Program-made: the position numbers and the translations under genes
Part shown: piece by piece, positions 210-56,812 of the stretch
How the letters are laid out: the number at the start of each line of letters is the position of its first letter
Position numbering within the stretch: the first letter of the stretch is position 1
From: a virus
Lineage: Duplodnaviria; Caudoviricetes
Strand: one strand, 5' to 3'
DNA length: 57,639 nucleotides
Virus record (IMG/VR): IMGVR_UViG_3300018083_000005
Location: 1 to 57,639 of that record
Notes under the pieces: model-generated
The model's input: the letters and a program-made list of their open reading frames with translations, nothing else
Told to the model about the DNA's origin: nothing
Databases searched by the model: none

Positions 210-270
210 TTTGTAACTCCCTTGGTGGTGTTAGGTAGGATGCTTAACTTCAGTGTTACCCCTACGATGC

Positions 271-302
271 GAAGTGCCGAAGTGCCGAAGTGCCGAAGTG
301 CC
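271..302. repeat. tandem repeat (GAAGTGCC)x4
   Basis: Four exact 8-bp copies directly after the stop of the 302-496 gene. Confidence 0.95.
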
Positions 303-33733: not shown

Positions 33734-36180
33734 GTAGGGCCGACACCGAATTCTGCTACGAATGGCAGTGTCCAGCCTAGTTCGTCAAGGGCCACAGAGG
33801 ACATTACTTGTTCGCAGACTGTAGAGTATTCTTCGATGTACGCCTGCTCAACGTCTGCAACGATTGAGTCGTGAACCAGAATGCAAATTGAAGCCCTGGA
33901 TCGATCGATTTCATCAGCAAGCCTAATTGCAGCACAGAGGGTGAGGTCGGACGCAGTGCTTTGCGGATAGAAGTTAATTCCTTCCCGGTAAGCAGCTTGG
34001 AGGTTTTCACGTGTAAGTAGATGGAACCGTCTTTTTCGCCCGAAAGGTGAAACGAGTACATGCTTGGTTTTGACTTCACGTCTTACTTCATCCTCCCATT
34101 CCTCTACACCTTTGAATGTTTGCCACACCCATGCTATGTAGGGTTCTGCTAGTCGTTTAGGAATACCGTGCTTCTCTTGGAATGTATCCGCACTCTGCCC
34201 ATAGAATACACCGAAGTTTACGTTTTTGCAGGTCGAGTATTGCTCGTCAGTATAGTCTGCCCCAAAGAACTTGGTTGCAGTCTCCCTGTGGAGTGATAGG
34301 TTGTTACGGTAAATTCGTGTAAGCTCTGTATCGCCCGAAAACTGAGCGATACATCGAAGTTCCGCCTGCGAGAAGTCTGCTTGTACAATTTGTCGGCCAG
34401 GAGAGGCGCGAAATAGTTTACGGATATCCGGCAGTCCCTCTTTCGACCGCGTGATATTTTGCAAGTTAGGTTTACTAGACGAGAGCCGCCCACTGTTCGT
34501 GCCATGTAGGTTGAGCTGAGTGTAAATCCGAGAATCTTCATCTAGCTCTGCTCTTTGGATGAGTCCGACGAGGTACGTCCCATCTTGTTTGACAAGTTTT
34601 TGGTAGCGGTCGTAAGATTCTGTAAAGCTAATGTAGAACTTCTTGCGTTCGTCGCTATCCTCCGCAGTGACAGAGCGTACAATGTTGCCTTCACGTTGAA
34701 CCACTGTCTCTCCCCGAAACTTAAATCGTCCTTCGATGATTTCTTTTCGTGCTGAGTCATCGATACTCCTCTCTGGGTTGGGCATGTTCTTCAGTGGCTT
34801 ACGCTTCTGCATCGCATGCTTGATACCCCATACGTCATAGTACAGATGCGACATTTGCTTAGGCGATCCGACATTGAGCAATGGATTACCGGCATGCTGC
34901 TGTAGCTGCTTGGCAATCTCCTCTAACTCAGGCAGTACCTCAAACTCATGGATATCACCAGCGCGTACAGAATCATAGATCATGCCGTCCAGTTCTACAT
35001 CGGTGCAAAAGCTATTACCTCGTAATAGTAGGTGGCTATAGGCCCGGAGTACATCGTCTCTTTCTGCGCGAGGGTACTGCTCCCCGAAAAGTTGGAAAGT
35101 GCCGCCAACGTCCATTCCCGCATACCTATAGAATTCATCGTAGTCTGTGACGACTCCGGATTTCTTGGCCGCTTCAACAGCAGGACTGGAATAATGAGGC
35201 CATCCAAAAGTATCCATGAGTAGATAGTCGAGGCCATGTACCCCAATTCGCTCGTCCGTACCATTACGTTCATCGAGCGCATATGAGAGGAGCATAGTGT
35301 CATGATCTACTCTGGCTTCGATTCCGTAGGTGTGACGTAGGATTTTAGTGTCAAACTTACCGCCGTGATAGATGAAAACTCGCCCTTGCTCATTTCGTAG
35401 GACGTTGGAAAGATCCTTAATTGCATCCGGGGATCGCCAAGCTCCACCGCGCTCGCCACATACAATGGCATTGCTTCCGTCAATAGAGAATTGGACGCTA
35501 ATAAGAGTTGCTTTGTGAGATAGTCCGCCTCTGGATTCGATATCGACAGCGATATGTCCTTGGTACCGTGCCAAATCTCTAAGCGTTCTTCTAATTTCTC
35601 CAACATCTTCGATTACCTCTACTATTGGCAGGGTGGGGGGAGGTAGCGGATTGAACGCTCTTTGGAAGTCCCTTTTAAGGTCGGGGAATTTTGAGTCGTC
35701 GTGGAGGACGATTGCAGGGTTGTTAGTTGCCACCACCGTCCTGCCTCCGATGCTATGACGATATCCCCTATATCTTGAGATAGAGCCTCGTCCAATAAGG
35801 AGCTTAACTGCTTCATCTCCCGCCGCGACAACTGTATCAATACCTCGGAGTTCGTGTTCCAGACGAGGAGCGCAGGCTTTAATGGCTTCTGGCGGAATTT
35901 TCCCATCTGGTGCCACACAGAGAACAGTGTTAGTAAGAAGAACTTGCTCACGTTTCACCCCATTCATTCCGAGTAGGTAGTCCATGATCTTGCCACTACC
36001 ATACTGGCTTGCAAATGGCTCTCCCGCGATGACTTCAGGCTTGCCCGGTGAGCGCGAAACCACGGCACCCCGCACAGGGTGCATGGTGGGCTTCCGGGTC
36101 TTCACGCAGGGTGCATCTGCGAGAGGACATTCATGACATAGTGCGTGTGGTGCTTTAGCTGCTACTGCCGATGTAGCCAT
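33715..36180 (-). CDS. polA: family A DNA polymerase with N-terminal UDG-like domain and 3'-5' exonuclease
   Basis: VDIES / KFD / YAGMD exo motifs; SGRLSS..PNLQNI, DFSQAELR, KNVNFGVFYG, VHDS; N-terminal family-4 UDG fold with four Cys. Confidence 0.97.
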   Translation of the reverse strand: MATSAVAAKAPHALCHECPLADAPCVKTRKPTMHPVRGAVVSRSPGKPEVIAGEPFASQYGSGKIMDYLLGMNGVKREQVLLTNTVLCVAPDGKIPPEAIKACAPRLEHELRGIDTVVAAGDEAVKLLIGRGSISRYRGYRHSIGGRTVVATNNPAIVLHDDSKFPDLKRDFQRAFNPLPPPTLPIVEVIEDVGEIRRTLRDLARYQGHIAVDIESRGGLSHKATLISVQFSIDGSNAIVCGERGGAWRSPDAIKDLSNVLRNEQGRVFIYHGGKFDTKILRHTYGIEARVDHDTMLLSYALDERNGTDERIGVHGLDYLLMDTFGWPHYSSPAVEAAKKSGVVTDYDEFYRYAGMDVGGTFQLFGEQYPRAERDDVLRAYSHLLLRGNSFCTDVELDGMIYDSVRAGDIHEFEVLPELEEIAKQLQQHAGNPLLNVGSPKQMSHLYYDVWGIKHAMQKRKPLKNMPNPERSIDDSARKEIIEGRFKFRGETVVQREGNIVRSVTAEDSDERKKFYISFTESYDRYQKLVKQDGTYLVGLIQRAELDEDSRIYTQLNLHGTNSGRLSSSKPNLQNITRSKEGLPDIRKLFRASPGRQIVQADFSQAELRCIAQFSGDTELTRIYRNNLSLHRETATKFFGADYTDEQYSTCKNVNFGVFYGQSADTFQEKHGIPKRLAEPYIAWVWQTFKGVEEWEDEVRREVKTKHVLVSPFGRKRRFHLLTRENLQAAYREGINFYPQSTASDLTLCAAIRLADEIDRSRASICILVHDSIVADVEQAYIEEYSTVCEQVMSSVALDELGWTLPFVAEFGVGPTWGEAK

Positions 36181-39849: not shown

Positions 39850-40622
39850 TTGGACTCTCCTTCATTTGTTGTTGCGAGCTTAGACCACAAACTAGGAACG
39901 GTCGGATCGACTTCGACTGCATCGAACGCGCCAGTCCTATCCTTAGCGATTGCAGTCTCGGTCTTTTGAAACTGCATATATCTCGTTACTCCGTCGCCAT
40001 TGCTCTCCGCTCTGTAGTAGCCGACTATATCAAGAAACCCCGGAATGTCAATACGGAGCTTCCCTACCAGCTTCGGGAACACAATCATCTTCATGTTGTT
40101 ATCACGGTCAGAAGACGAGTGACAGTTGAAGATGGTATTACATGGTAGGTCACGGAACGCACGTACTAGCTGTCGCATATGCGTAGACGACTTACCATAC
40201 CCTCGCTGATCCGGTACGTCTGGATCGATCTTATCATTCACCTTGCTAAACTCTTTCATTACTTCAACAAGGTCGAGTGCCTGTAGCTCACTCAGTGTAT
40301 CGATCCCGATTGTACCATAGGGGAATTTCTTACCATCGGAAGGAATGGCATTGAACAATTCACGGTAGGCTGCGACCAACTGCTTGACCGACCGTACTTG
40401 GATAACGTCAATATCCTTGCGATGCCGTAGCGTCGAGATACCACCATCGATATCGATGATACACAATGGTGACGTTGCCTTATGATCCTGTGCTGTACCC
40501 AGGAAATACGTCTTCCCTACTCCCGGCTCCCCGTACAGCATCATATTGAGCCACGTGATTGATTCGGCAGGGGGTAGAGCGCCTAGCCTCTCCTTCAATT
40601 CTGCGGTTGCTATATTATTCAC
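39846..40622 (-). CDS. Sak4-like (AAA_24) recombination ATPase
   Basis: YGEPGVGKT Walker A, IDTLSE, FRDLP, D-VGY, AKDR; start uncertain (GTG 40622 or ATA 40613). Confidence 0.9.
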   Translation of the reverse strand: MNNIATAELKERLGALPPAESITWLNMMLYGEPGVGKTYFLGTAQDHKATSPLCIIDIDGGISTLRHRKDIDVIQVRSVKQLVAAYRELFNAIPSDGKKFPYGTIGIDTLSELQALDLVEVMKEFSKVNDKIDPDVPDQRGYGKSSTHMRQLVRAFRDLPCNTIFNCHSSSDRDNNMKMIVFPKLVGKLRIDIPGFLDIVGYYRAESNGDGVTRYMQFQKTETAIAKDRTGAFDAVEVDPTVPSLWSKLATTNEGESK

Positions 40623-42338: not shown

Positions 42339-42375
42339 CACCCTCCGTTCAGGTTGCTCTCCCTTGGAACGATCT

Positions 42376-42404
42376 ACCCTATCAAACGACGGGGCTTGTG
42401 TCAA
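42376..42404 (-). promoter_or_regulatory. canonical sigmaA-type promoter TTGACA-N17-TAGGGT
   Basis: 17-bp spacer, TG extension, upstream of the recombination/replication operon. Confidence 0.75.
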
Positions 42405-44836: not shown

Positions 44837-46345
44837 CTAATCTCCGAATATCTCGTCAAACCATTTGCCTTTGGTATCGAGCTTGGTCTTGACATAACCA
44901 TCGACTGTCTTATCTGCGTTGATGTAGATTACTTCACAAGCGTGTTCTTGTCCGGGTCTGTAAACCCGTCCGATTGCCTGCATCATGTCCTTGGGCGACC
45001 ACGATCTATCCAGAAAGATGAGGTACTGAGCACAGGAAAGGTTAATGGACTCCCCACCAAGCGCCAGAGTAGATAGAAAGACTTGGTATTCTGGCTTCCG
45101 AAATAGATCGTGCCAGATTCGATAGCGTTCTGATTCACTATGATGCTGCTCCATATGCAAGTAACCAATTTTGGCCTTATCCAATCTGACCTTGAGTAGC
45201 TTAAGTGGGTCTTTGAAGTTACTGAATACCACCACCTTCTGCTCAGGTTCGTCAAGCTCCTCTAGAATCTTCATAACATCATCGAGCTTGGACGATGGCT
45301 CAACCAGTTCGATATCCGTAACCATACGATTCTGCTTGGCATCGAATGCGTGATTGACCACGTTCGGTGTAGCCACACAGATTTGGCGTAGTCGGTTGAG
45401 CTGACTCAGGACATTGGGTGAGGATAGCGTAGCACCCTTCTGATCCATCGTCCGCAGTACCGTCTTGATTTCACTGTACATCTTCCGCTGTACTGCGTTC
45501 AACTCTGTAGCGTGTACAGTCTCAATCGGCTTCTCGATACCTCTGTGGACTTTCGCCATCGTGTGTCGAGGACCAAGCTGCTTACGTAGCGCACGAAATT
45601 CATCTACTCTGTGTGGCAAGATGCCTCGGATGAATCTGAACCCTCTGGCATCCATGTACTGATCGCAGAAGTAGTTGCGAAACGACCAGTAACTCTTGTA
45701 TTCATTAGGACTCAAGAAGTTCAACAGGCTCCACATTTCTGCAGGGTTGTTGACGAATCCCGTACCCGTCATGATGTGCCTATTGGTAGAGCGTAGCCTC
45801 TTGATATTGCGTGTCCACTGTGCCTTTGGATTCTTCAGCCTGTGAGCTTCATCAGCTAGGATCATATCCCAATTGATTGTCTTCAGCTTGTCGAATACGC
45901 CGATACCATCCTTAGATTTCTTGGCCGAATTGGTATTGGCAGCAGTAGTGAACACGTCATAGTGTGCGAGTACCACCATCGGGTGATTATGTCGGCCACT
46001 CTTGATAGTGTACAGTAGCTCATTGATAGTGGTCGGACTCTCAAAGTCCTCAATGCGTAGTGTGGCATCGTGGATACCTAGATTGTACAGTTCCCACGAT
46101 TCCGGCAGGCATCGATAGAAGTCTGAGAAGTACGCACCCTTGCCCATCTTGGACGTAATGATGAGCGCGTTCTTTACTCGTTTCTTTTGGAGCAGCCACA
46201 AACCCGTACTGGTTTTGAAGCACCCCATCTGTGACCAGTTAGCCGAGTAGGGCATAGGCGAGAGATAGCGCAAATCCTTCTCTTGCCAAGCTCTGCGTTC
46301 GTATTGACTCTCGGTTATCAGGTCTTCAAACAGTAGATCAGTCAA
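44837..46345 (-). CDS. SNF2-family helicase
   Basis: MGCFKT, DEAH, TGT...N, GESINL, QAIGRVYRPGQ. Confidence 0.95.
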   Translation of the reverse strand: MTDLLFEDLITESQYERRAWQEKDLRYLSPMPYSANWSQMGCFKTSTGLWLLQKKRVKNALIITSKMGKGAYFSDFYRCLPESWELYNLGIHDATLRIEDFESPTTINELLYTIKSGRHNHPMVVLAHYDVFTTAANTNSAKKSKDGIGVFDKLKTINWDMILADEAHRLKNPKAQWTRNIKRLRSTNRHIMTGTGFVNNPAEMWSLLNFLSPNEYKSYWSFRNYFCDQYMDARGFRFIRGILPHRVDEFRALRKQLGPRHTMAKVHRGIEKPIETVHATELNAVQRKMYSEIKTVLRTMDQKGATLSSPNVLSQLNRLRQICVATPNVVNHAFDAKQNRMVTDIELVEPSSKLDDVMKILEELDEPEQKVVVFSNFKDPLKLLKVRLDKAKIGYLHMEQHHSESERYRIWHDLFRKPEYQVFLSTLALGGESINLSCAQYLIFLDRSWSPKDMMQAIGRVYRPGQEHACEVIYINADKTVDGYVKTKLDTKGKWFDEIFGD

Positions 46346-46367
46346 TCTACCTCCCTTGGTTTACCTG

Positions 46368-46829
46368 TCAACCATGTATCATAGCAAGCGCCTCTGGAAT
46401 TGTCAAGCCCTGCTTCTGTAACGATTTGAATTTGAGGTACGCTGTGTGACAGGACTTATTTTCGTTTCGTTTGTGGAACAGAGCGCCGTCTTTAGCACCC
46501 TTTATCGGTTTCCTACAGGCTTGACATATCGGACGAGCTAGCTCTGTTACGGCGTCCCTGGCTTGAGTGAATGTGTAGCCTCTGACAACCATGAGCAATT
46601 CTATCTCGTCTGCATGTTTGGTTAACCAAAGCTCTTGCCGACAAGTACGGCACGTAGTACGATAAAGGTCGCTCCCTTGAAGCACAGTACCACAGTGAAT
46701 GCATTTTGCTCGGTGATCTATTTGATCTGAACACTCAGCACACCAGCCAGTATCGTAGTTAAAATTGAGATACGAAACCCAATCCCCGCAAGAGGTACAT
46801 AGTTCCTCTAGGTCGGGAATTGCAGACAA
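46368..46829 (-). CDS. multi zinc-ribbon protein
   Basis: Five CxxC pairs. Confidence 0.8.
   Translation of the reverse strand: MSAIPDLEELCTSCGDWVSYLNFNYDTGWCAECSDQIDHRAKCIHCGTVLQGSDLYRTTCRTCRQELWLTKHADEIELLMVVRGYTFTQARDAVTELARPICQACRKPIKGAKDGALFHKRNENKSCHTAYLKFKSLQKQGLTIPEALAMIHG
46378..46406 (-). promoter_or_regulatory. canonical promoter TTGACA-N17-TATGAT
   Basis: 17-bp spacer with TG extension, just upstream of the helicase RBS. Confidence 0.75.
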
Positions 46830-46875
46830 CTACCAGGGCTTGCGATCTATCTTTCTAGAACGAAACCATCGGCGC

Positions 46876-47448
46876 TTACGCGCCCCCGCAACCCCATGCT
46901 CCGTAGCCAAAGCGAGAATAGACGTTAAGGGCAGCCTGGTATTGCTGTCTGGGTGTAGCGAGATAGGCTTCGGAAGGCGCACCGGCTGGCTTGTATCCGT
47001 CCCACGTGGAATTAGCGAAACCGAATGCTCCCTGATAGGCACCACTATTCCAGTCCCATCTTGAAGCTCCTGGCCCTGTACCACCTTGATATCCTGTTTC
47101 ACAGCGAGCTATCCTTTGCCATTTGGAGGGGAGCCATTGCCACCATGCGTAATGGTAAATCCACTTGGTATACTGTTCGTGATAGGCATGGGCTTGACCT
47201 CGCCAAGATGTAACCACGAAGCGTTTATAGGCACAAGCGTGCTTCCTGCGCTCTGGGTAGTATGTAGGACTTCGTGCATCACCTAGCTCCTTTTGATAGT
47301 ACCAAACCTTAGCACGGTAGTAGACTATGGCTTTTTCTGCCGATCTGCACGTTACTACTTTGACTTTTTCCTGGGGCTTTCGCTGTTGGCTATCGCCGCT
47401 ACCTACGAACAGCAGCGCGACCAGTATGGCAGCTAGTCCTAGCAGGAT
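46876..47448 (-). CDS. rpf: secreted resuscitation-promoting factor (Rpf transglycosylase domain), non-canonical start
   Basis: WQRIARCETG...W.WNSG.YQG.F.F...TW..Y...A..AT..QQ..AA...G.GAW.C; frame open 77 codons upstream of the listed GTG through a signal-peptide-like ILLGLAAILVALLFVG to ATC/CTG behind AAGGAG. Confidence 0.85.
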   Translation of the reverse strand: MLLGLAAILVALLFVGSGDSQQRKPQEKVKVVTCRSAEKAIVYYRAKVWYYQKELGDARSPTYYPERRKHACAYKRFVVTSWRGQAHAYHEQYTKWIYHYAWWQWLPSKWQRIARCETGYQGGTGPGASRWDWNSGAYQGAFGFANSTWDGYKPAGAPSEAYLATPRQQYQAALNVYSRFGYGAWGCGGA

Positions 47449-47476
47449 TCCTTCTCCTTGTTAGTTTACATGACCT

Positions 47477-47571
47477 CACGGGCGAAGGATGGACTATCCA
47501 CTTTTCTGCACGGGGATGGGTGCAGTGGGGAGATGGGTAGGATAGTCCATCCTCTTTATCGTTTGCCCGTG
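47477..47571 (-). ncRNA. long-stem RNA element with C-rich loops directly upstream of rpf RBS
   Basis: CACGGGC/GCCCGTG plus AGGATGGACTATCC/GGATAGTCCATCCT stems enclosing CCCATCTCCCC and a TGCAC-CCATCCCC-GTGCA hairpin. Confidence 0.6.
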
Positions 47572-47574
47572 GAA

Positions 47575-47658
47575 TTAAAACGAAGGAGAGGGACACGTAA
47601 CAGCTTGTTTAAAGCCGATGCATGCCCCTCTCCTGAGCGTGTACCAAGGGAGGTACAT
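47575..47658 (-). ncRNA. candidate ~85-nt anti-RBS small RNA
   Basis: Starts about 6 nt after a canonical -10; 5' hairpin UGUACC-UCCCUU-GGUACA; 3' 14-bp hairpin followed by UCGUUUU. Confidence 0.6.
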
Positions 47659-47663
47659 GCCGC

Positions 47664-47692
47664 ACGGTAGCACGTAAATCCCTAGTTGTCAA
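47664..47692 (-). promoter_or_regulatory. canonical promoter TTGACA-N17-TACCGT
   Basis: 17-bp spacer with TG extension. Confidence 0.75.
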
Positions 47693-48062
47693 GCCTTTTT
47701 CGTGCAATCCTATGTTCGCCATCTACTTGCGTCAGACCTACTCCCTTTACATCTGCATCGAAGTAAGGTAGGAAGCCTGCTGCAATATCAGGGTCATATT
47801 CCCAATCAATCTTGAGTGTCATGTTCATCGTCTGCGGAGGTACTCCTGTTTTCCTCCATGTTGCCAACAGACGAGCAATGATGAAACCTTGCATTAGATC
47901 GACGGTATCTTCGACACCCTCCCGACTAAAGGTTTTACCATCTTCAGGATTGGCTACCTTGATCTGGAAGGCCATTTCATCTGGGAAGTTAGGTTCCTGT
48001 GCTTTCGCATAGAAAGCATCGGCGTCCATACCACCATCCTGTGTGCTGTTTTCAAGTGACAT
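47682..48062 (-). CDS. hypothetical protein
   Basis: 126-aa ORF in operon. Confidence 0.75.
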   Translation of the reverse strand: MSLENSTQDGGMDADAFYAKAQEPNFPDEMAFQIKVANPEDGKTFSREGVEDTVDLMQGFIIARLLATWRKTGVPPQTMNMTLKIDWEYDPDIAAGFLPYFDADVKGVGLTQVDGEHRIARKRLDN

Positions 48063-48231
48063 CGTCGTAGACCACTATCTTATCGTAGCCCTTCACGTAA
48101 ATCTGCTTCATCTTCACGATGTAGACTTCGTGACCGGGCCTGTCGGGGTCGGTAACAATTCTACCTGTGTCCTCGTCAGGGATCGAACGGTAGTGACCCT
48201 TGACCTTAATGATCTTAGTTCGCTTTGCCAT
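48052..48231 (-). CDS. 59-aa protein with VKGHYR motif
   Basis: MAKRTKIIKVKGHYRSIPD...IYVKGY; AAGGGAGGT RBS. Confidence 0.75.
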   Translation of the reverse strand: MAKRTKIIKVKGHYRSIPDEDTGRIVTDPDRPGHEVYIVKMKQIYVKGYDKIVVYDDVT

Positions 48232-48314
48232 ACTTACCTCCCTTATTCCTGGAGAAAATCCGCGAGGAAATTCCTGTTGTCAGAATGGAAAACGCTTAGG
48301 CAGCTTCTAGAGCT

Positions 48315-48401
48315 TTAGCAGCCTCGTTGACCAATTCCCAGGATTATTGATACAATCAGTGTTGCAAGAATCAGGAAACGACCGTCCCATACCCAACTCA
48401 T
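48315..48401 (-). CDS. 28-aa membrane peptide
   Basis: MSWVWDGRFLILATLIVSIILGIGQRGC; ATGA overlap. Confidence 0.55.
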   Translation of the reverse strand: MSWVWDGRFLILATLIVSIILGIGQRGC

Positions 48402-49375
48402 CGTCTGAAGTTGAAGACTCGGCGCTCTGAGATAATGAGCGGCTTGTCTTCTGGGCCTTTGATATATTCGTAGATGTATGTCCAGTGCCAGCCATTCTTG
48501 TCGGGCTGCTTGCGCCAGTGACCTCGCACGATCCACCTTCTCGACCACGGCACAAGTGGGGCATCCGGGTCTGGTTTACATGCGGACTTGCGCCGTAGAG
48601 TTATCAGTGTGATCAATCGCTCTGGCGCATTAGTCCAGTCACGTGCATATCGTCTGCGGGTAGCACGATCCGGCGTGATCTTGATAGGCTCACCGATCTT
48701 CTGTGCTGCGAGGATATTCAGTGCTGCAAATAGTGTAAGTACACCATCCACTAGCTCACTACCCTGTGGATTGCCAGAAGCCTTCCCAGGACGTACTGTG
48801 TCGCCAGCGCGTAGCACGTAGTAGTGACTCAGGGACATGGGCGGTATGGGAATGTCATCCCTTATGAGCATGGGGATGATCTTGCTATTGAACGCATCGC
48901 CAGGATCGTTCATATCAGTCCAGAAGCACAGGACTAGAGCCGTATCAACTTCATCCCCATCCCGACTTGCACGAACACTGCACCACGATAGTGCCGAAAC
49001 GCCCATTTCCAAGCCGTTTCTATCCACACCGTGCATGGATTCCTCAAACATGCAGAATCCTATTGGGCACAGTAGCGTGTGTGGATCGAATACGTACTCG
49101 TCCGGCAAATCATGGGCTGCTTGCAACATGATGTGCTGCATATCTGTGGTGACGTACATCGTGTCTCCACGCCAAAGCATTTCATTAATGTTGCGCGTCA
49201 GGATATATACATCGTGGGCTATCTGAGCAGGTGATGCTGGCATTCCTGCACTTACTTCCTTACGCAAGATGTTGTTAAAGAAGTTCATGGTGAACGCCTC
49301 ACCTATATCAGCCTGATGCCACTTCAGCAAATCCATCTGAGTATCGAGCGCACGTTGCCAACCGTTATTTTGCAT
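48398..49375 (-). CDS. phage protein with C-terminal VRGHWR motif
   Basis: RWIVRGHWRKQ...YIKGPEDKP; function unknown. Confidence 0.85.
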   Translation of the reverse strand: MQNNGWQRALDTQMDLLKWHQADIGEAFTMNFFNNILRKEVSAGMPASPAQIAHDVYILTRNINEMLWRGDTMYVTTDMQHIMLQAAHDLPDEYVFDPHTLLCPIGFCMFEESMHGVDRNGLEMGVSALSWCSVRASRDGDEVDTALVLCFWTDMNDPGDAFNSKIIPMLIRDDIPIPPMSLSHYYVLRAGDTVRPGKASGNPQGSELVDGVLTLFAALNILAAQKIGEPIKITPDRATRRRYARDWTNAPERLITLITLRRKSACKPDPDAPLVPWSRRWIVRGHWRKQPDKNGWHWTYIYEYIKGPEDKPLIISERRVFNFRR

Positions 49376-49637
49376 GGCTAGCCTCGGCCATGTACCAGCC
49401 GACTTGTACGCCGGTCATGAAGATAGCGCACTCATGAGAAACTATCTCAATAACAGTTTCGTGCGTTACGTCCATACCAGAATCGGCCATGCGACGTAAC
49501 GTGATATCACAGTAGTCGTCAATGAGTTTCTGCACAACACCTTGCACCATGTAGTCCGCAAGGTGGCGCTCAAAATCCTCACCATTAGTTGACTGTGCTT
49601 TATTCACAGCCTCTTTTGCTTCGTCCCACGTGAGCAT
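49365..49637 (-). CDS. hypothetical protein
   Basis: ACCAAGGGAGGT RBS. Confidence 0.8.
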   Translation of the reverse strand: MLTWDEAKEAVNKAQSTNGEDFERHLADYMVQGVVQKLIDDYCDITLRRMADSGMDVTHETVIEIVSHECAIFMTGVQVGWYMAEASHAK

Positions 49638-49663
49638 AGAGTACCTCCCTTGGTTTCACGCGG

Positions 49664-50447: not shown

Positions 50448-50924
50448 TTAGGTACTGCTCTTTGCCTTGGACGTGCCAAGTCTTTTACCTCCCTCAATCG
50501 CATCTAACCGGGCCTTAATTTCAGTAAGCTCCCGGTCGAAGCTCAAAATGAAACCGTTTATGTCTACTCCCTGTAACCTCCTTTGCAAGTCTTTGACCTG
50601 TTGACGGACTGTATCAAGCTCTGTGGGTTTTGTCAAGCGTTTCTCGTAAATACCCACATACTCGTCGTATTCAGGCTTGTGGCGCAGCAGTATCACTGAG
50701 CCTTGCCGACCTGAACCACGCTTTACCTGTTCAATACAGCCCATCGCTGTGAGGGCGTCGAATATCTTTGTGTAATAGCCCTGACTCACGCCGATAGCGC
50801 GGAAGGCTTCGACCTTCGATCCCTCAAACTTTAGTGTACCACCGTTGTCAAGTGGAGCGGCACGTTTTTCAAGCTCGTCGTACATGTGAGCCATGTGAGT
50901 GAAGATAGCCGGAATGTCACTCAT
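50448..50924 (-). CDS. winged-helix protein with C-terminal coiled coil
   Basis: FRAIGVSQGYYTKIFDALTAMGCIEQVKRG. Confidence 0.75.
   Translation of the reverse strand: MSDIPAIFTHMAHMYDELEKRAAPLDNGGTLKFEGSKVEAFRAIGVSQGYYTKIFDALTAMGCIEQVKRGSGRQGSVILLRHKPEYDEYVGIYEKRLTKPTELDTVRQQVKDLQRRLQGVDINGFILSFDRELTEIKARLDAIEGGKRLGTSKAKSST
50608..50636 (-). promoter_or_regulatory. internal canonical promoter TTGACA-N17-TACAGT
   Basis: 17-bp spacer, TG extension; could drive 50084-50422. Confidence 0.6.
50833..50851 (-). promoter_or_regulatory. intragenic short-spacer site TTGACA-N7-TACACT
   Basis: TTGACAacggtggTACACT inside 50448-50924. Confidence 0.6.
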
Positions 50925-52345: not shown

Positions 52346-52764
52346 TAGCTAGCCTTCAAGAGTGGATCGGTGCAGACCCATTCGACTTCTTCCTCGACAA
52401 TCTCCGGGGAATAGTGAGCGGCATGCACGATCTTGTTTCCTGTCTTGACTGCCTTGCACACAACCTCACGCGCAACACTCATACGAAGATTCAACTTCGT
52501 ACCGAATTGCCTAGAGATTGTAAGCTGTGTACCCTGGTAATCCTTTTTCACAGGCTTCAGAATGCGAACCATCTGCTTCGTGATGGATTTCTTTTCCTTC
52601 GCACTCAGTTGCTCAAAAGTCTGCCGCTGGTAGTACGGTAGATAAATCGTAGCAGCCAGCGTAATATCATTTACGGGCATTTCGACTCCCCTATCTTCAA
52701 GGAAATCAGCAAGCTCCCGTAGGGATTCCACTAGGGCATCCCTCTCCTTATACCTCATCTTCAC
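52345..52764 (-). CDS. hypothetical protein
   Basis: LRELADFLE...REVVC...VEW-C-PLL; ACCAAGGGAGGT RBS. Confidence 0.85.
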   Translation of the reverse strand: MKMRYKERDALVESLRELADFLEDRGVEMPVNDITLAATIYLPYYQRQTFEQLSAKEKKSITKQMVRILKPVKKDYQGTQLTISRQFGTKLNLRMSVAREVVCKAVKTGNKIVHAAHYSPEIVEEEVEWVCTDPLLKAS

Positions 52765-52910
52765 TTACCTCCCTTGGTTCTGGAAACCATTTGGATTCTA
52801 GGATACGCTCGATATCATCTTGCATATCCAACATTTTGTTGTGAATGATAATTACGTAGATAATCAGGATTGCTATACCGATATCCTGTATTGCATCGAC
52901 TAGATCACCA

Positions 52911-53665: not shown

Positions 53666-53680
53666 GTATCTCCCTTGGTT

Positions 53681-53793
53681 TGTGGAGAGTGTACGGATCA
53701 GGTGAAATCCTGACGAGGCCAGTTTTCAGTCATGGGACGCAGGGCTTCAATCCTGCACGACGACGATTTAGACCTTGACGTACACTCTCCACA
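53681..53793 (-). ncRNA. structured intergenic RNA element with 15-bp closing stem
   Basis: TGTGGAGAGTGTACG...CGTACACTCTCCACA enclosing GCAGG/CCTGC and TCAGG/CCTGA hairpins. Confidence 0.6.
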
Positions 53794-55000: not shown

Positions 55001-55029
55001 ATCTTACCACAGTTTACCACTTGTGTCAA
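55001..55029 (-). promoter_or_regulatory. dual-spacing promoter: TTGACA-N7-TAAACT and TTGACA-N17-TAAGAT
   Basis: A 10-bp near-duplication GTGGTAAACT/GTGGTAAGAT provides a -10 at both spacings. Confidence 0.8.
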
Positions 55030-55602: not shown

Positions 55603-55627
55603 AACTTCTCCCTTGGTAGGTTACTAC

Positions 55628-56777: not shown

Positions 56778-56812
56778 GGTACCTCCCTTGGTAGATTTGT
56801 TTGCGCGTTTCA

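Follow-up and report, generated by a model that had tools for sequence, protein, structure and literature searches.

The stretch of DNA analysed here (the window) is a complete virus record of 57,639 bp (IMG/VR record IMGVR_UViG_3300018083_000005) with direct terminal repeats. Its left arm carries virion genes on the plus strand, and its right arm carries genes for a DNA polymerase, a primase and a SNF2-type helicase on the minus strand. Within the right arm, between a 126-amino acid (aa) open reading frame (ORF) and the gene of an Rpf-like transglycosylase, lies the element under study (47576-47692, minus strand), in which a promoter is followed by a hairpin whose loop is complementary to an extended Shine-Dalgarno sequence, hereafter the tag, shared by the ribosome-binding sites (RBSs) of a set of the phage's own genes. 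The original prediction took the element for a small RNA (sRNA) with which the phage shuts off translation of these genes. The phage family is an uncultured one from soil. No DNA-level similarity of the window to cultured phages was found, and identity of the helicase protein to its cultured-phage counterparts does not exceed 30%. A tRNA scan of the window returned no tRNA.

The features of the element are listed in Table 1. The upstream ORF ends with the stop codon TAG at 47684-47682 (minus strand), within the promoter. This promoter was not returned by a generic promoter scan, since TACCGT fits TATAAT at only three of six positions; it does have T1, A2, T6 and the TG extension, all of them kept in the relatives described below. 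TACCGT is followed by gcggc-AUG, with 7 nucleotides (nt) between the -10 and the first stem-loop (SL1). The core of SL1, GUACC-UCCCUU-GGUAC, occupies 47656-41, and U47657:A47640 forms its sixth pair. The predicted RNA runs from 47658/7 to ~47576 and is about 82 nt long; the corresponding 83-nt stretch folds at -41.7 kcal/mol (z = -7.9), which none of 200 shuffles equalled, and a 95-nt stretch of the element gave z = -5.9. The anatomy that had been proposed, a promoter, a hairpin with the anti-Shine-Dalgarno sequence in its loop and a second hairpin of 14 bp, was thus confirmed from the minus-strand sequence and the folds. A terminator scan did not call the second stem-loop (SL2) with its tail UUCGUUUU, the loop being longer than 8 nt. 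Further downstream, the internal and apical loops of a third hairpin (SL3) are C-rich and CUCCCC-like (CCCAUCUCCCCA, CCCAUCCCC), and SL3 may supply extra anti-Shine-Dalgarno seeds; comparable C-rich domains of different sequence occur in the related contigs L002, L003, L004, L014 and L023 (z between -3.4 and -6.2). A search of 46000-49500 against Rfam 15, with E up to 10, gave two microRNA chance hits only, far below the gathering scores.

Table 1. Coordinates of the element, of the gene that follows it and of the tag copies in the window
Feature	Position	Strand	Remarks
-35 hexamer TTGACA	47687..47692	-	Read from the sequence; shares bases with the final codons of the 126-aa ORF upstream
Extended -10, TGcTACCGT	47664..47672	-	TG at 47672-71, hexamer TACCGT at 47669-64; spacer of 17 nt, ending in TGc
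SL1 hairpin, UGUACC-UCCCUU-GGUACA	47640..47657	-	From folds; 5' end of the predicted transcript
Seed CCUCCCUUGG	47644..47653	-	Loop UCCCUU with the closing CC:GG pairs; reverse complement of the RBS tag
SL2 hairpin	47584..47634	-	From folds; GC-rich 14-bp stem (47634-21 with 47584-97) enclosing an inner 6-bp hairpin
U-rich tail UUCGUUUU	47576..47583	-	6 of 8 U; with SL2 a putative intrinsic terminator, probably leaky
SL3 hairpin	47477..47571	-	Second long imperfect hairpin; z = -6.4 in the window; transcribed only past SL2
Rpf-like transglycosylase gene (189 aa)	46876..47445	-	Secreted or membrane protein; Pfam PF06737, E = 1.3e-8
RBS tag of the helicase gene, AAACCAAGGGAGGUAG	46347..46362	-	SNF2-type, TTG start at 46345; 13 nt complementary; -25.7 kcal/mol; just 3' of its own promoter (46406-46378)
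RBS tag of a 195-aa gene (start 56777)	56779..56794	-	15 nt, perfect complement; -30.7 kcal/mol
RBS tag of a 90-aa gene (start 49637)	49641..49656	-	14 nt complementary; -31.7 kcal/mol, best in the genome
RBS tag of a gene starting at 52764/52758	52765..52780	-	13 nt complementary
RBS tag of a 55-aa ORF (start 53665)	53666..53681	-	15/16 complementary, reaching into the start codon
RBS tag of an 82-aa gene (start 55602)	55608..55616	-	9-mer match
5'-terminal tag copy on the PD-(D/E)XK nuclease mRNA	42359..42367	-	Directly after the promoter 42404-42376
Tag copy preceding a start on the minus strand, close to the left genome end	217..225	-	9-mer match

The abundance of the tag was assessed with the 9-mer CCAAGGGAG, which has 9 matches in the genome where 0.24 are expected, a number that none of 100 shuffles reached. 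Eight of these are minus-strand copies, and the ninth, at 47644-47652 within the element, lies on the plus strand; the latter had been described as the only reversed copy in the right arm, and it proved to be the only one in the whole genome (one of nine). All eight sense copies fall in translation-initiation or 5' mRNA regions. Seven of them stand 4-7 nt before a start codon, and the eighth (42367) lies at an mRNA 5' end, 20 nt before the start codon chosen for the PD-(D/E)XK nuclease gene, and is not the Shine-Dalgarno sequence of that gene. A lone 9-mer could be due to chance (about 0.2 per strand by 4^9 arithmetic); for the reversed copy chance is excluded because the element is conserved in relatives. 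Two further observations concern the surroundings of the copies. A tandem 8-nt repeat (CACTTCGG, about four copies at ~270-300, minus strand) lies within 75 nt upstream of the copy at 217-225, and a family of promoters of the form TTGACA-N14-TG(n)TAnnnT, with an extended -10, was seen on the minus strand of the right arm (42376-42404, 46378-46406, 50608-50636 and 55001-55029), two of which (42404 and 46406) have a tag copy within ~10 nt downstream.

Pairing of the seed with the 96 start regions of the window singled out largely the tagged genes. The best duplexes were those with 49637, 56777, 52758, 46345, 1662 (plus strand), 53665, 1319 (minus strand), 54814, 56193 and 55602, with energies between -21 and -32 kcal/mol where the medians were about -12 to -13. 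The top seven minus-strand start regions are all tagged, including the near-tags at 1319 (CCGAGGGAGG) and 54814 (CAAGGGAGG, 11 nt), and the plus-strand gene at 1662, which also has CCGAGGGAGG, ranks among the top partners. The lengths of complementarity stated in the original prediction for 56777, 49637, 46345, 52764, 54814 and 53665 were all correct. The genes at 1662 and 1319 are divergent and lie near the left end; they rank 5th and 7th among the predicted targets, and their variant tag, ACCGAGGGAGGCA, has a G in place of an A, so that a G:U pair is formed with the seed. A duplex of -14 kcal/mol or better was reached by 12 of 41 start regions on the plus strand of the left arm, compared to 24 of 55 on the minus strand; start regions of the virion arm are mostly weaker seed partners, in keeping with the earlier view that virion genes would be spared.

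Loci of relatives were collected by means of the helicase protein and not by means of the motif, so that the sample is free of ascertainment on the motif. The element was present in 19 of the 20 contigs in which helicase identity was at least 61% and upstream DNA was sufficient, lying 958-1909 nt 5' of the helicase, the exception being L021; in another ten contigs the DNA did not extend far enough for its presence to be judged. Recognisable versions were also found in L011 and L029, the helicases of which are 41% and 42% identical, and none in L027, L040, L041 and L053. Use of the Rpf-like protein as a search handle yielded nothing new beyond L065 and L068, the latter an unrelated GC-rich contig, and a search for viral loci through the upstream 126-aa protein gave none, that protein having two homologues only. 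A covariance model of the element (R1) found one sense copy per genome and missed L029, where the loop has 4 nt; its alignment (A3) was left out of the pair counts because R1 also matched RBS tags on the opposite strand. The comparisons below cover 16 distinct element sequences, to which L029 was added for the folds (17 lineages).

The promoter, the loop and the geometry of the element are kept in these relatives, and the stem is not. The -35 hexamer TTGAC(A/G) is retained in all 16 lineages despite unrelated upstream sequence, and a spacer of 17-18 nt and a TG-extended TAnnnT -10 (TACCGT, TAACGT, TAGCGT, TACGGT, TAGCTT, TACGTT, TACTGT or TACCCT) are retained although the upstream gene differs. 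SL1 starts at the predicted 5' end, 4-8 nt past the -10. Whereas the loop core CUCCC is invariant across the 16 lineages, 14 distinct stem sequences were counted among the 17 (for example GUACC, CAGCC, CUUACC, ACACC, CUAGA-ACC, ACCUAA-ACC, CCAU-AAACC and CUCGUUAG-UGCC), and this replacement of the stem around a constant promoter and C-rich loop points to compensatory change. In an alignment of SL1 from the 16 lineages, kept deliberately ungapped and so penalising those with shorter loops, 69.5% of the cells were paired compared to 53.8% after shuffling, and the covariation score was 0.433 against 0.185 in shuffles (none of 500 as high) and 0.11-0.20 in slid controls. Folds of transcript length gave z values of -3.2 to -8.5 in 17 of 17 lineages, with SL1 part of the minimum-energy fold in 14, and a strong equivalent of SL2, unrelated in sequence, was present in every one of them. 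The distant relative L065 has the promoter, a C-rich stretch and a canonical terminator tail, UUUUGUCGUUUUU. Judged by this pattern of conservation, the element is a selected RNA structure, neither a chance match nor merely the terminator of the upstream gene. Two variants of it may be recorded here: in L008/L009/L015 and in L014 the promoter spacer holds a tag-like sequence in sense orientation (AAGGGAGG or AGGGAGG), and in L016 (154-260) the SL1 stem (CCUCC-CCCCUU-GGAGG) locks up the anti-Shine-Dalgarno sequence, and the helicase RBS keeps the common tag.

The relation between the seed and the start regions is also seen outside the window. In 12 of 16 lineages the start region of the helicase, or of the gene preceding it, pairs with the seed of its own lineage in a duplex of -20 to -29 kcal/mol, compared to locus medians of -8 to -12 kcal/mol and to -7.7 to -16 kcal/mol for the gene directly 3' of the element; the Rpf-like gene of the window (-10.5 against a window median of -10.6 kcal/mol) follows the same pattern. 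Whether seed and tag change together had been named as the decisive comparison, and its outcome was divided: joint change was observed in L004/L005 and in L017, whereas it was weak or absent in four lineages, contradicted in L016 and absent from the 3' flank. The seed of L004/L005, CCUCCCUGG, has lost one U through a 1-nt deletion; six of the eight GGGAG RBSs in these contigs read (C)CAGGGAGG and none reads CAAGGGAG, while the window has nine RBSs with CAAGGGAG and none with CAGGGAG. For the eight tags of L004/L005 the mean matched extension upstream of GGGAG was 2.50 with their own seed and 1.00 with the group-A seed; conversely, the 53 group-A tags gave 2.57 nt with the group-A seed and at most 0.75 with the others. 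In L017 the seed is CCUCCCUAGG and the sole GGGAGG RBS, that of the helicase, is CCTAGGGAGG, a perfect match of 10 nt in which a U-to-A change in one partner is met by an A-to-U change in the other (extension of this single tag 4 with its own seed, against 1). Single-site hints came from L010 (CCCC vs GGGG) and L026 (A vs U). A cross-table of 9-mers, seeds against genomes, was uninformative because such 9-mers overlap generic Shine-Dalgarno sequence.

The explanation that we favour, with a probability of about one half, is that the element encodes a C-rich-loop anti-Shine-Dalgarno RNA of the phage which represses its tagged early genes. Host RNA polymerase would initiate at the extended -10 promoter, an activity suggested by the conserved sequence, and the first nucleotides would fold into SL1, displaying the UCCCUU loop closed by CC:GG, a structure that the compensatory changes support. 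Being at the 5' terminus, SL1 would also protect the RNA. SL2 with the U-rich tail would terminate most transcripts at ~82 nt, and the remainder would presumably run through SL3 into the Rpf-like transglycosylase gene. The loop is proposed to nucleate pairing with the extended Shine-Dalgarno tag, (A)CCAAGGGAGG(UA), which precedes some 8-10 genes of the early region, the SNF2-type helicase among them; the resulting duplex of 10-15 bp, if formed in vivo, would mask the Shine-Dalgarno sequence, outcompete the 16S rRNA tail and keep the 30S subunit from binding. Translation of the tagged class would be shut off as the stable RNA builds up, with the sign and timing assumed here, and untagged genes, namely most virion genes and the gene directly 3' of the element, would be spared. 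We consider the observation real and the mechanism a well-motivated inference. The original prediction is supported in part; its middle expression, silencing as such, host targets and two-layer temporal programme gained no support.

Several observations weigh against this mechanism. The -10 is weak at its middle positions, and the U-rich tails after SL2 are interrupted in most lineages. L021 has AAAAGGGAGGCA tags and no element in the 1.9 kb upstream; conversely, L011 and L029 have the hairpin and no recognisable tag class. The seed of L016 has three extra C, and its tag suits the common seed better than its own (extension 0 vs 4). L010 and L026 have 1-3 tags each and gain at most one extra matching position, and the flanks 3' of GGGAGG show no co-variation. 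On the sequences compared, the co-variation of seed and tag amounts to two clean events. Moreover, a DNA-binding protein able to read the site in both orientations, or gene conversion between the repeats, would likewise lead to such a concerted change of the tags and the reversed copy. No Rfam family matches the element. The sole RNA run found, the metatranscriptome run X1, in which 7% of sampled words were matched, gave contigs at 40000-40131, at 47919-48056 and within 50-55 kb. The element is covered by none of these contigs, which are short and incapable of showing RNA ends. The genomes of GTDB gave no relative. Finally, in L006, L007, L008, L010, L016, L017, L026, L051 and L065, SL2 stands 15-25 nt before the Shine-Dalgarno sequence of the Rpf-like gene. 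As this leaves no room for a promoter before that gene, SL2 must leak, which makes the element a 5' leader as well, in a role at least as natural as that of an sRNA.

One possible, if rather unlikely, explanation is indeed that the element acts in cis only, as a 5' leader or attenuator of the Rpf-like operon, with SL1 as a 5' stabiliser or a cis-acting anti-Shine-Dalgarno hairpin, SL2 as a regulated or leaky attenuator, and the match to the tags of secondary importance. The Rpf-like gene has an apparent CTG start (47443-47445) 7 nt after AAGGAG, an arrangement found also in L002 (~6874) and with TTG in that place in relatives, and the promoter scan found no promoter upstream of it other than that of the element. 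The order of promoter, SL1, SL2, Shine-Dalgarno sequence and gene is conserved, the short gap between SL2 and the Shine-Dalgarno sequence recurs in many lineages, and in three of 17 minimum-energy folds (L008, L017 and L051) the seed has the next gene's Shine-Dalgarno sequence as its partner in cis. Stabilising 5' hairpins start at the transcript +1, and SL1 begins at the predicted +1. A stabiliser, however, has no need of a conserved loop sequence, and the start region downstream pairs with the seed no better than the median, in contrast to the tags, by the energies given above. Furthermore, the downstream Shine-Dalgarno sequence remains AACAAGGAG where the seed has changed (L004), whereas the tags of L004/L005 and L017 track the seed. 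Of the terminator-ended sRNA that had been predicted, a conserved locus of promoter, hairpin and terminator-like hairpin stands; the terminator cannot be tight, and the RNA is a leader in addition or instead.

A similar architecture is found in the nut sites of lambda, in which boxB, a hairpin with a conserved loop, lies directly after an early promoter and before a terminator. Were SL1 of this type, a phage antiterminator would bind its loop and RNA polymerase would then pass SL2; the sequence of promoter, hairpin with conserved loop and free stem, terminator-like hairpin and genes suits this model. We nevertheless hold it to be improbable, as it leaves unexplained the exact complementarity of loop and tag and their joint change in two lineages; the boxB loops of lambda, unlike that of SL1, are not known to be complementary to phage RBSs. 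No boxA-like element or N-like protein turned up, in analyses that included no search aimed at either.

Still less probable is a site read at the level of DNA, an operator or stoperator at which a phage protein would recognise CCAAGGGAGG in either orientation, the reversed copy being an operator at +1 to +16. Three of the nine copies (42367, 46359 and the reversed one) lie directly 3' of sigma-70-like promoters, and a concerted change of all copies would suit a protein of altered specificity; for a comparable motif, the start-associated sequence (SAS) of Cluster K mycobacteriophages, Pope et al. left both protein and RNA open. A DNA site would, however, hardly impose the Shine-Dalgarno spacing of 4-7 nt that seven of the eight sense copies hold (the copy at 42367, at 20 nt, does not), nor does it need the inverted repeat, changing in a compensatory manner, in which the reversed copy is set. 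Neither this model nor the nut-like one explains both the free-stem hairpin and its complementarity to the tags.

Two further explanations can be dealt with briefly. That nothing specific is encoded, with hairpins that serve to terminate the upstream 126-aa gene and a reversed tag that is a chance match or the remnant of an inverted duplication, would fit the start of the region at the stop codon of that ORF and the not improbable occurrence of one 9-mer per strand (~0.2), and is very hard to reconcile with the preservation of promoter, loop and geometry in 21 contigs, with an upstream ORF of so few homologues and with stems that change compensatorily. Least credible of all is a leaderless 27-aa peptide (MYLPWYTLRR...), for which the window offers an ATG at the predicted +1/+2: a start codon occurs at the homologous place in 2 of 16 lineages only, the window (ATG) and L002 (GTG), whose versions (27 and 56 aa) diverge after 10 residues, while in L014 and L017 no ORF at that place reaches 15 aa and the frames differ elsewhere, so that it is the complementarity and not the peptide that relatives keep.

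Stretches of similar appearance were also seen outside this family. A pattern scan of viral contigs for the promoter followed by CCTCCC returned 20 stretches, of which four were already known and 16 came from other phage groups; the latter have C-rich 5' ends and no matching tag class and, having been selected by pattern, are not counted as support. In other uncultured groups, seen through the same pattern and likewise devoid of a matching RBS tag class, what immediately follows a strong TTGACA-N17-TAAGGT/TATAGT promoter is either a 5' end rich in C (UUCCCCCCUCCCCC...) or a hairpin, CCCCUCCCC, with a U tract; the contigs concerned are L087 (6907, in 57,462 bp), L071, L076, L077, L079, L081 and L083, L074, L080, L082 and L088, and L070, L078 and L085.

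Anti-Shine-Dalgarno RNAs with C-rich loops and antisense RNAs of phages are both already known. The former include RsaE/RoxS in Gram-positive bacteria and SprX, which is located on mobile DNA; the latter include P22 sar and lambda OOP, each of which is concerned with one locus linked to immunity or lysogeny. In the published descriptions of the actinobacterial 6C (PMC6486639) and of LhrC (PMC12282133), C-rich or UCCC loops bind Shine-Dalgarno regions. The RNA proposed here resembles 6C/B11, LhrC and SprX in that unpaired C-rich motifs in hairpin loops would pair with the G-rich Shine-Dalgarno sequences of several mRNAs, for which long complementarity is not needed, and in having several C-rich modules (here SL1 and SL3); those RNAs are small, with a promoter and terminator of their own, features that for the present element are predicted. 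It differs from the chromosomal C-rich-loop sRNAs, which target host genes, in being encoded by a virulent-looking phage; its targets bear a dedicated extended tag with a perfect match of 10-15 nt; and it matches no Rfam family in sequence or structure. The c4 RNAs of P1/P7, the loops of which bind an RBS (PMC12197685), are likewise phage RNAs that display in a loop a complementarity to an RBS on a phage mRNA, with the difference that c4 serves one immunity/lysogeny locus whereas one seed here matches ~8-10 dispersed genes.

The nearest functional parallel is provided by T4, in which the endoribonuclease RegB and the repressor RegA inactivate early mRNAs at their initiation regions (PMC3014915): there, as is proposed here, a whole early class is shut off after transcription, at Shine-Dalgarno or initiation regions, and later genes lacking the motif escape. 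The effectors of T4 are proteins, whereas the effector proposed here is an RNA that would owe its specificity to base pairing.

The closest genomic analogue is the SAS of Cluster K phages. As described by Pope et al. 2011 (PMC3203893), SAS is an asymmetric 13-bp motif with a Shine-Dalgarno core that extends past the pairing with 16S rRNA, and is placed 3-7 bp before start codons, in the non-structural arm only and in one orientation; its function was left there as 'either RNA or protein', and was still described as undefined in 2024-2025. The eight sense copies of the tag in the window, likewise, are all on the minus strand, seven of them with a spacing of 4-7 nt, and in both cases there is a single reversed copy. 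The motif (GGGATAGGAGCCC), the phage group and the host differ, which makes SAS an analogue and the present phage no member of that group. The reversed SAS is at 34871-34883 in Anaya (L054) and at 534-546 in the Adephagia stretch L069 (58,682-58,694 of the record, between genes 92 and 93), an interval in which late transcription of Adephagia 'appears to initiate' according to a published report. In six of six phages folded, this copy occupies a 10-11-nt loop closed by GC pairs; in Anaya and Adephagia the loop has 10 nt and the hairpin is GCGCGG-CCUCCUAUCC-CCGCGC. The fold statistics are weak (z between +0.8 and -3.2). The non-coding region around it (~330 nt; 34690-35070 in L054, 401-733 in L069, also L055-L062) is conserved in 182 records, and two further features were seen in it, a TAGACT box that resembles a -10 and is conserved, and a hairpin, CGGCCCCGG/UUGGGGCCG, that covaries. 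The K6 phage Krueger speaks against simply extending the model to Cluster K: its SAS, in at least 17 copies, remains at consensus, its homologous loop (UUCUCCCUUCCC) has diverged and co-variation is absent. A diverged loop with unchanged SAS was observed in the K6 phage Bryler as well.

It may tentatively be suggested, as an idea that we rate as doubtful, that in some phages an extended Shine-Dalgarno tag labels the genes of one temporal class and exactly one reversed copy of it is kept in the hairpin loop of a non-coding RNA, the transcript of which switches the class, and that the same logic explains SAS; by analogy, the leader of the late transcript of Cluster K would then carry the anti-SAS sequence. 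No proposal of an anti-SAS RNA was found in the papers on SAS that were consulted. No description in print was found of a phage RNA directed at a tagged set of genes of the same phage, with natural co-varying pairs of seed and tag, nor was an RNA-based explanation of SAS, in a search that left most subscription journals and supplements outside its scope. If the favoured explanation is true, the element would be an RNA counterpart of T4 RegA/RegB, one that addresses the phage's own gene class through a shared ribosome-binding tag. The natural orthogonal pairs of seed and tag (of the window, L004 and L017 types) make the idea testable and are a potential synthetic translational switch, and the question of the function of SAS, which dates from 2011, becomes a concrete experiment on one hairpin loop.

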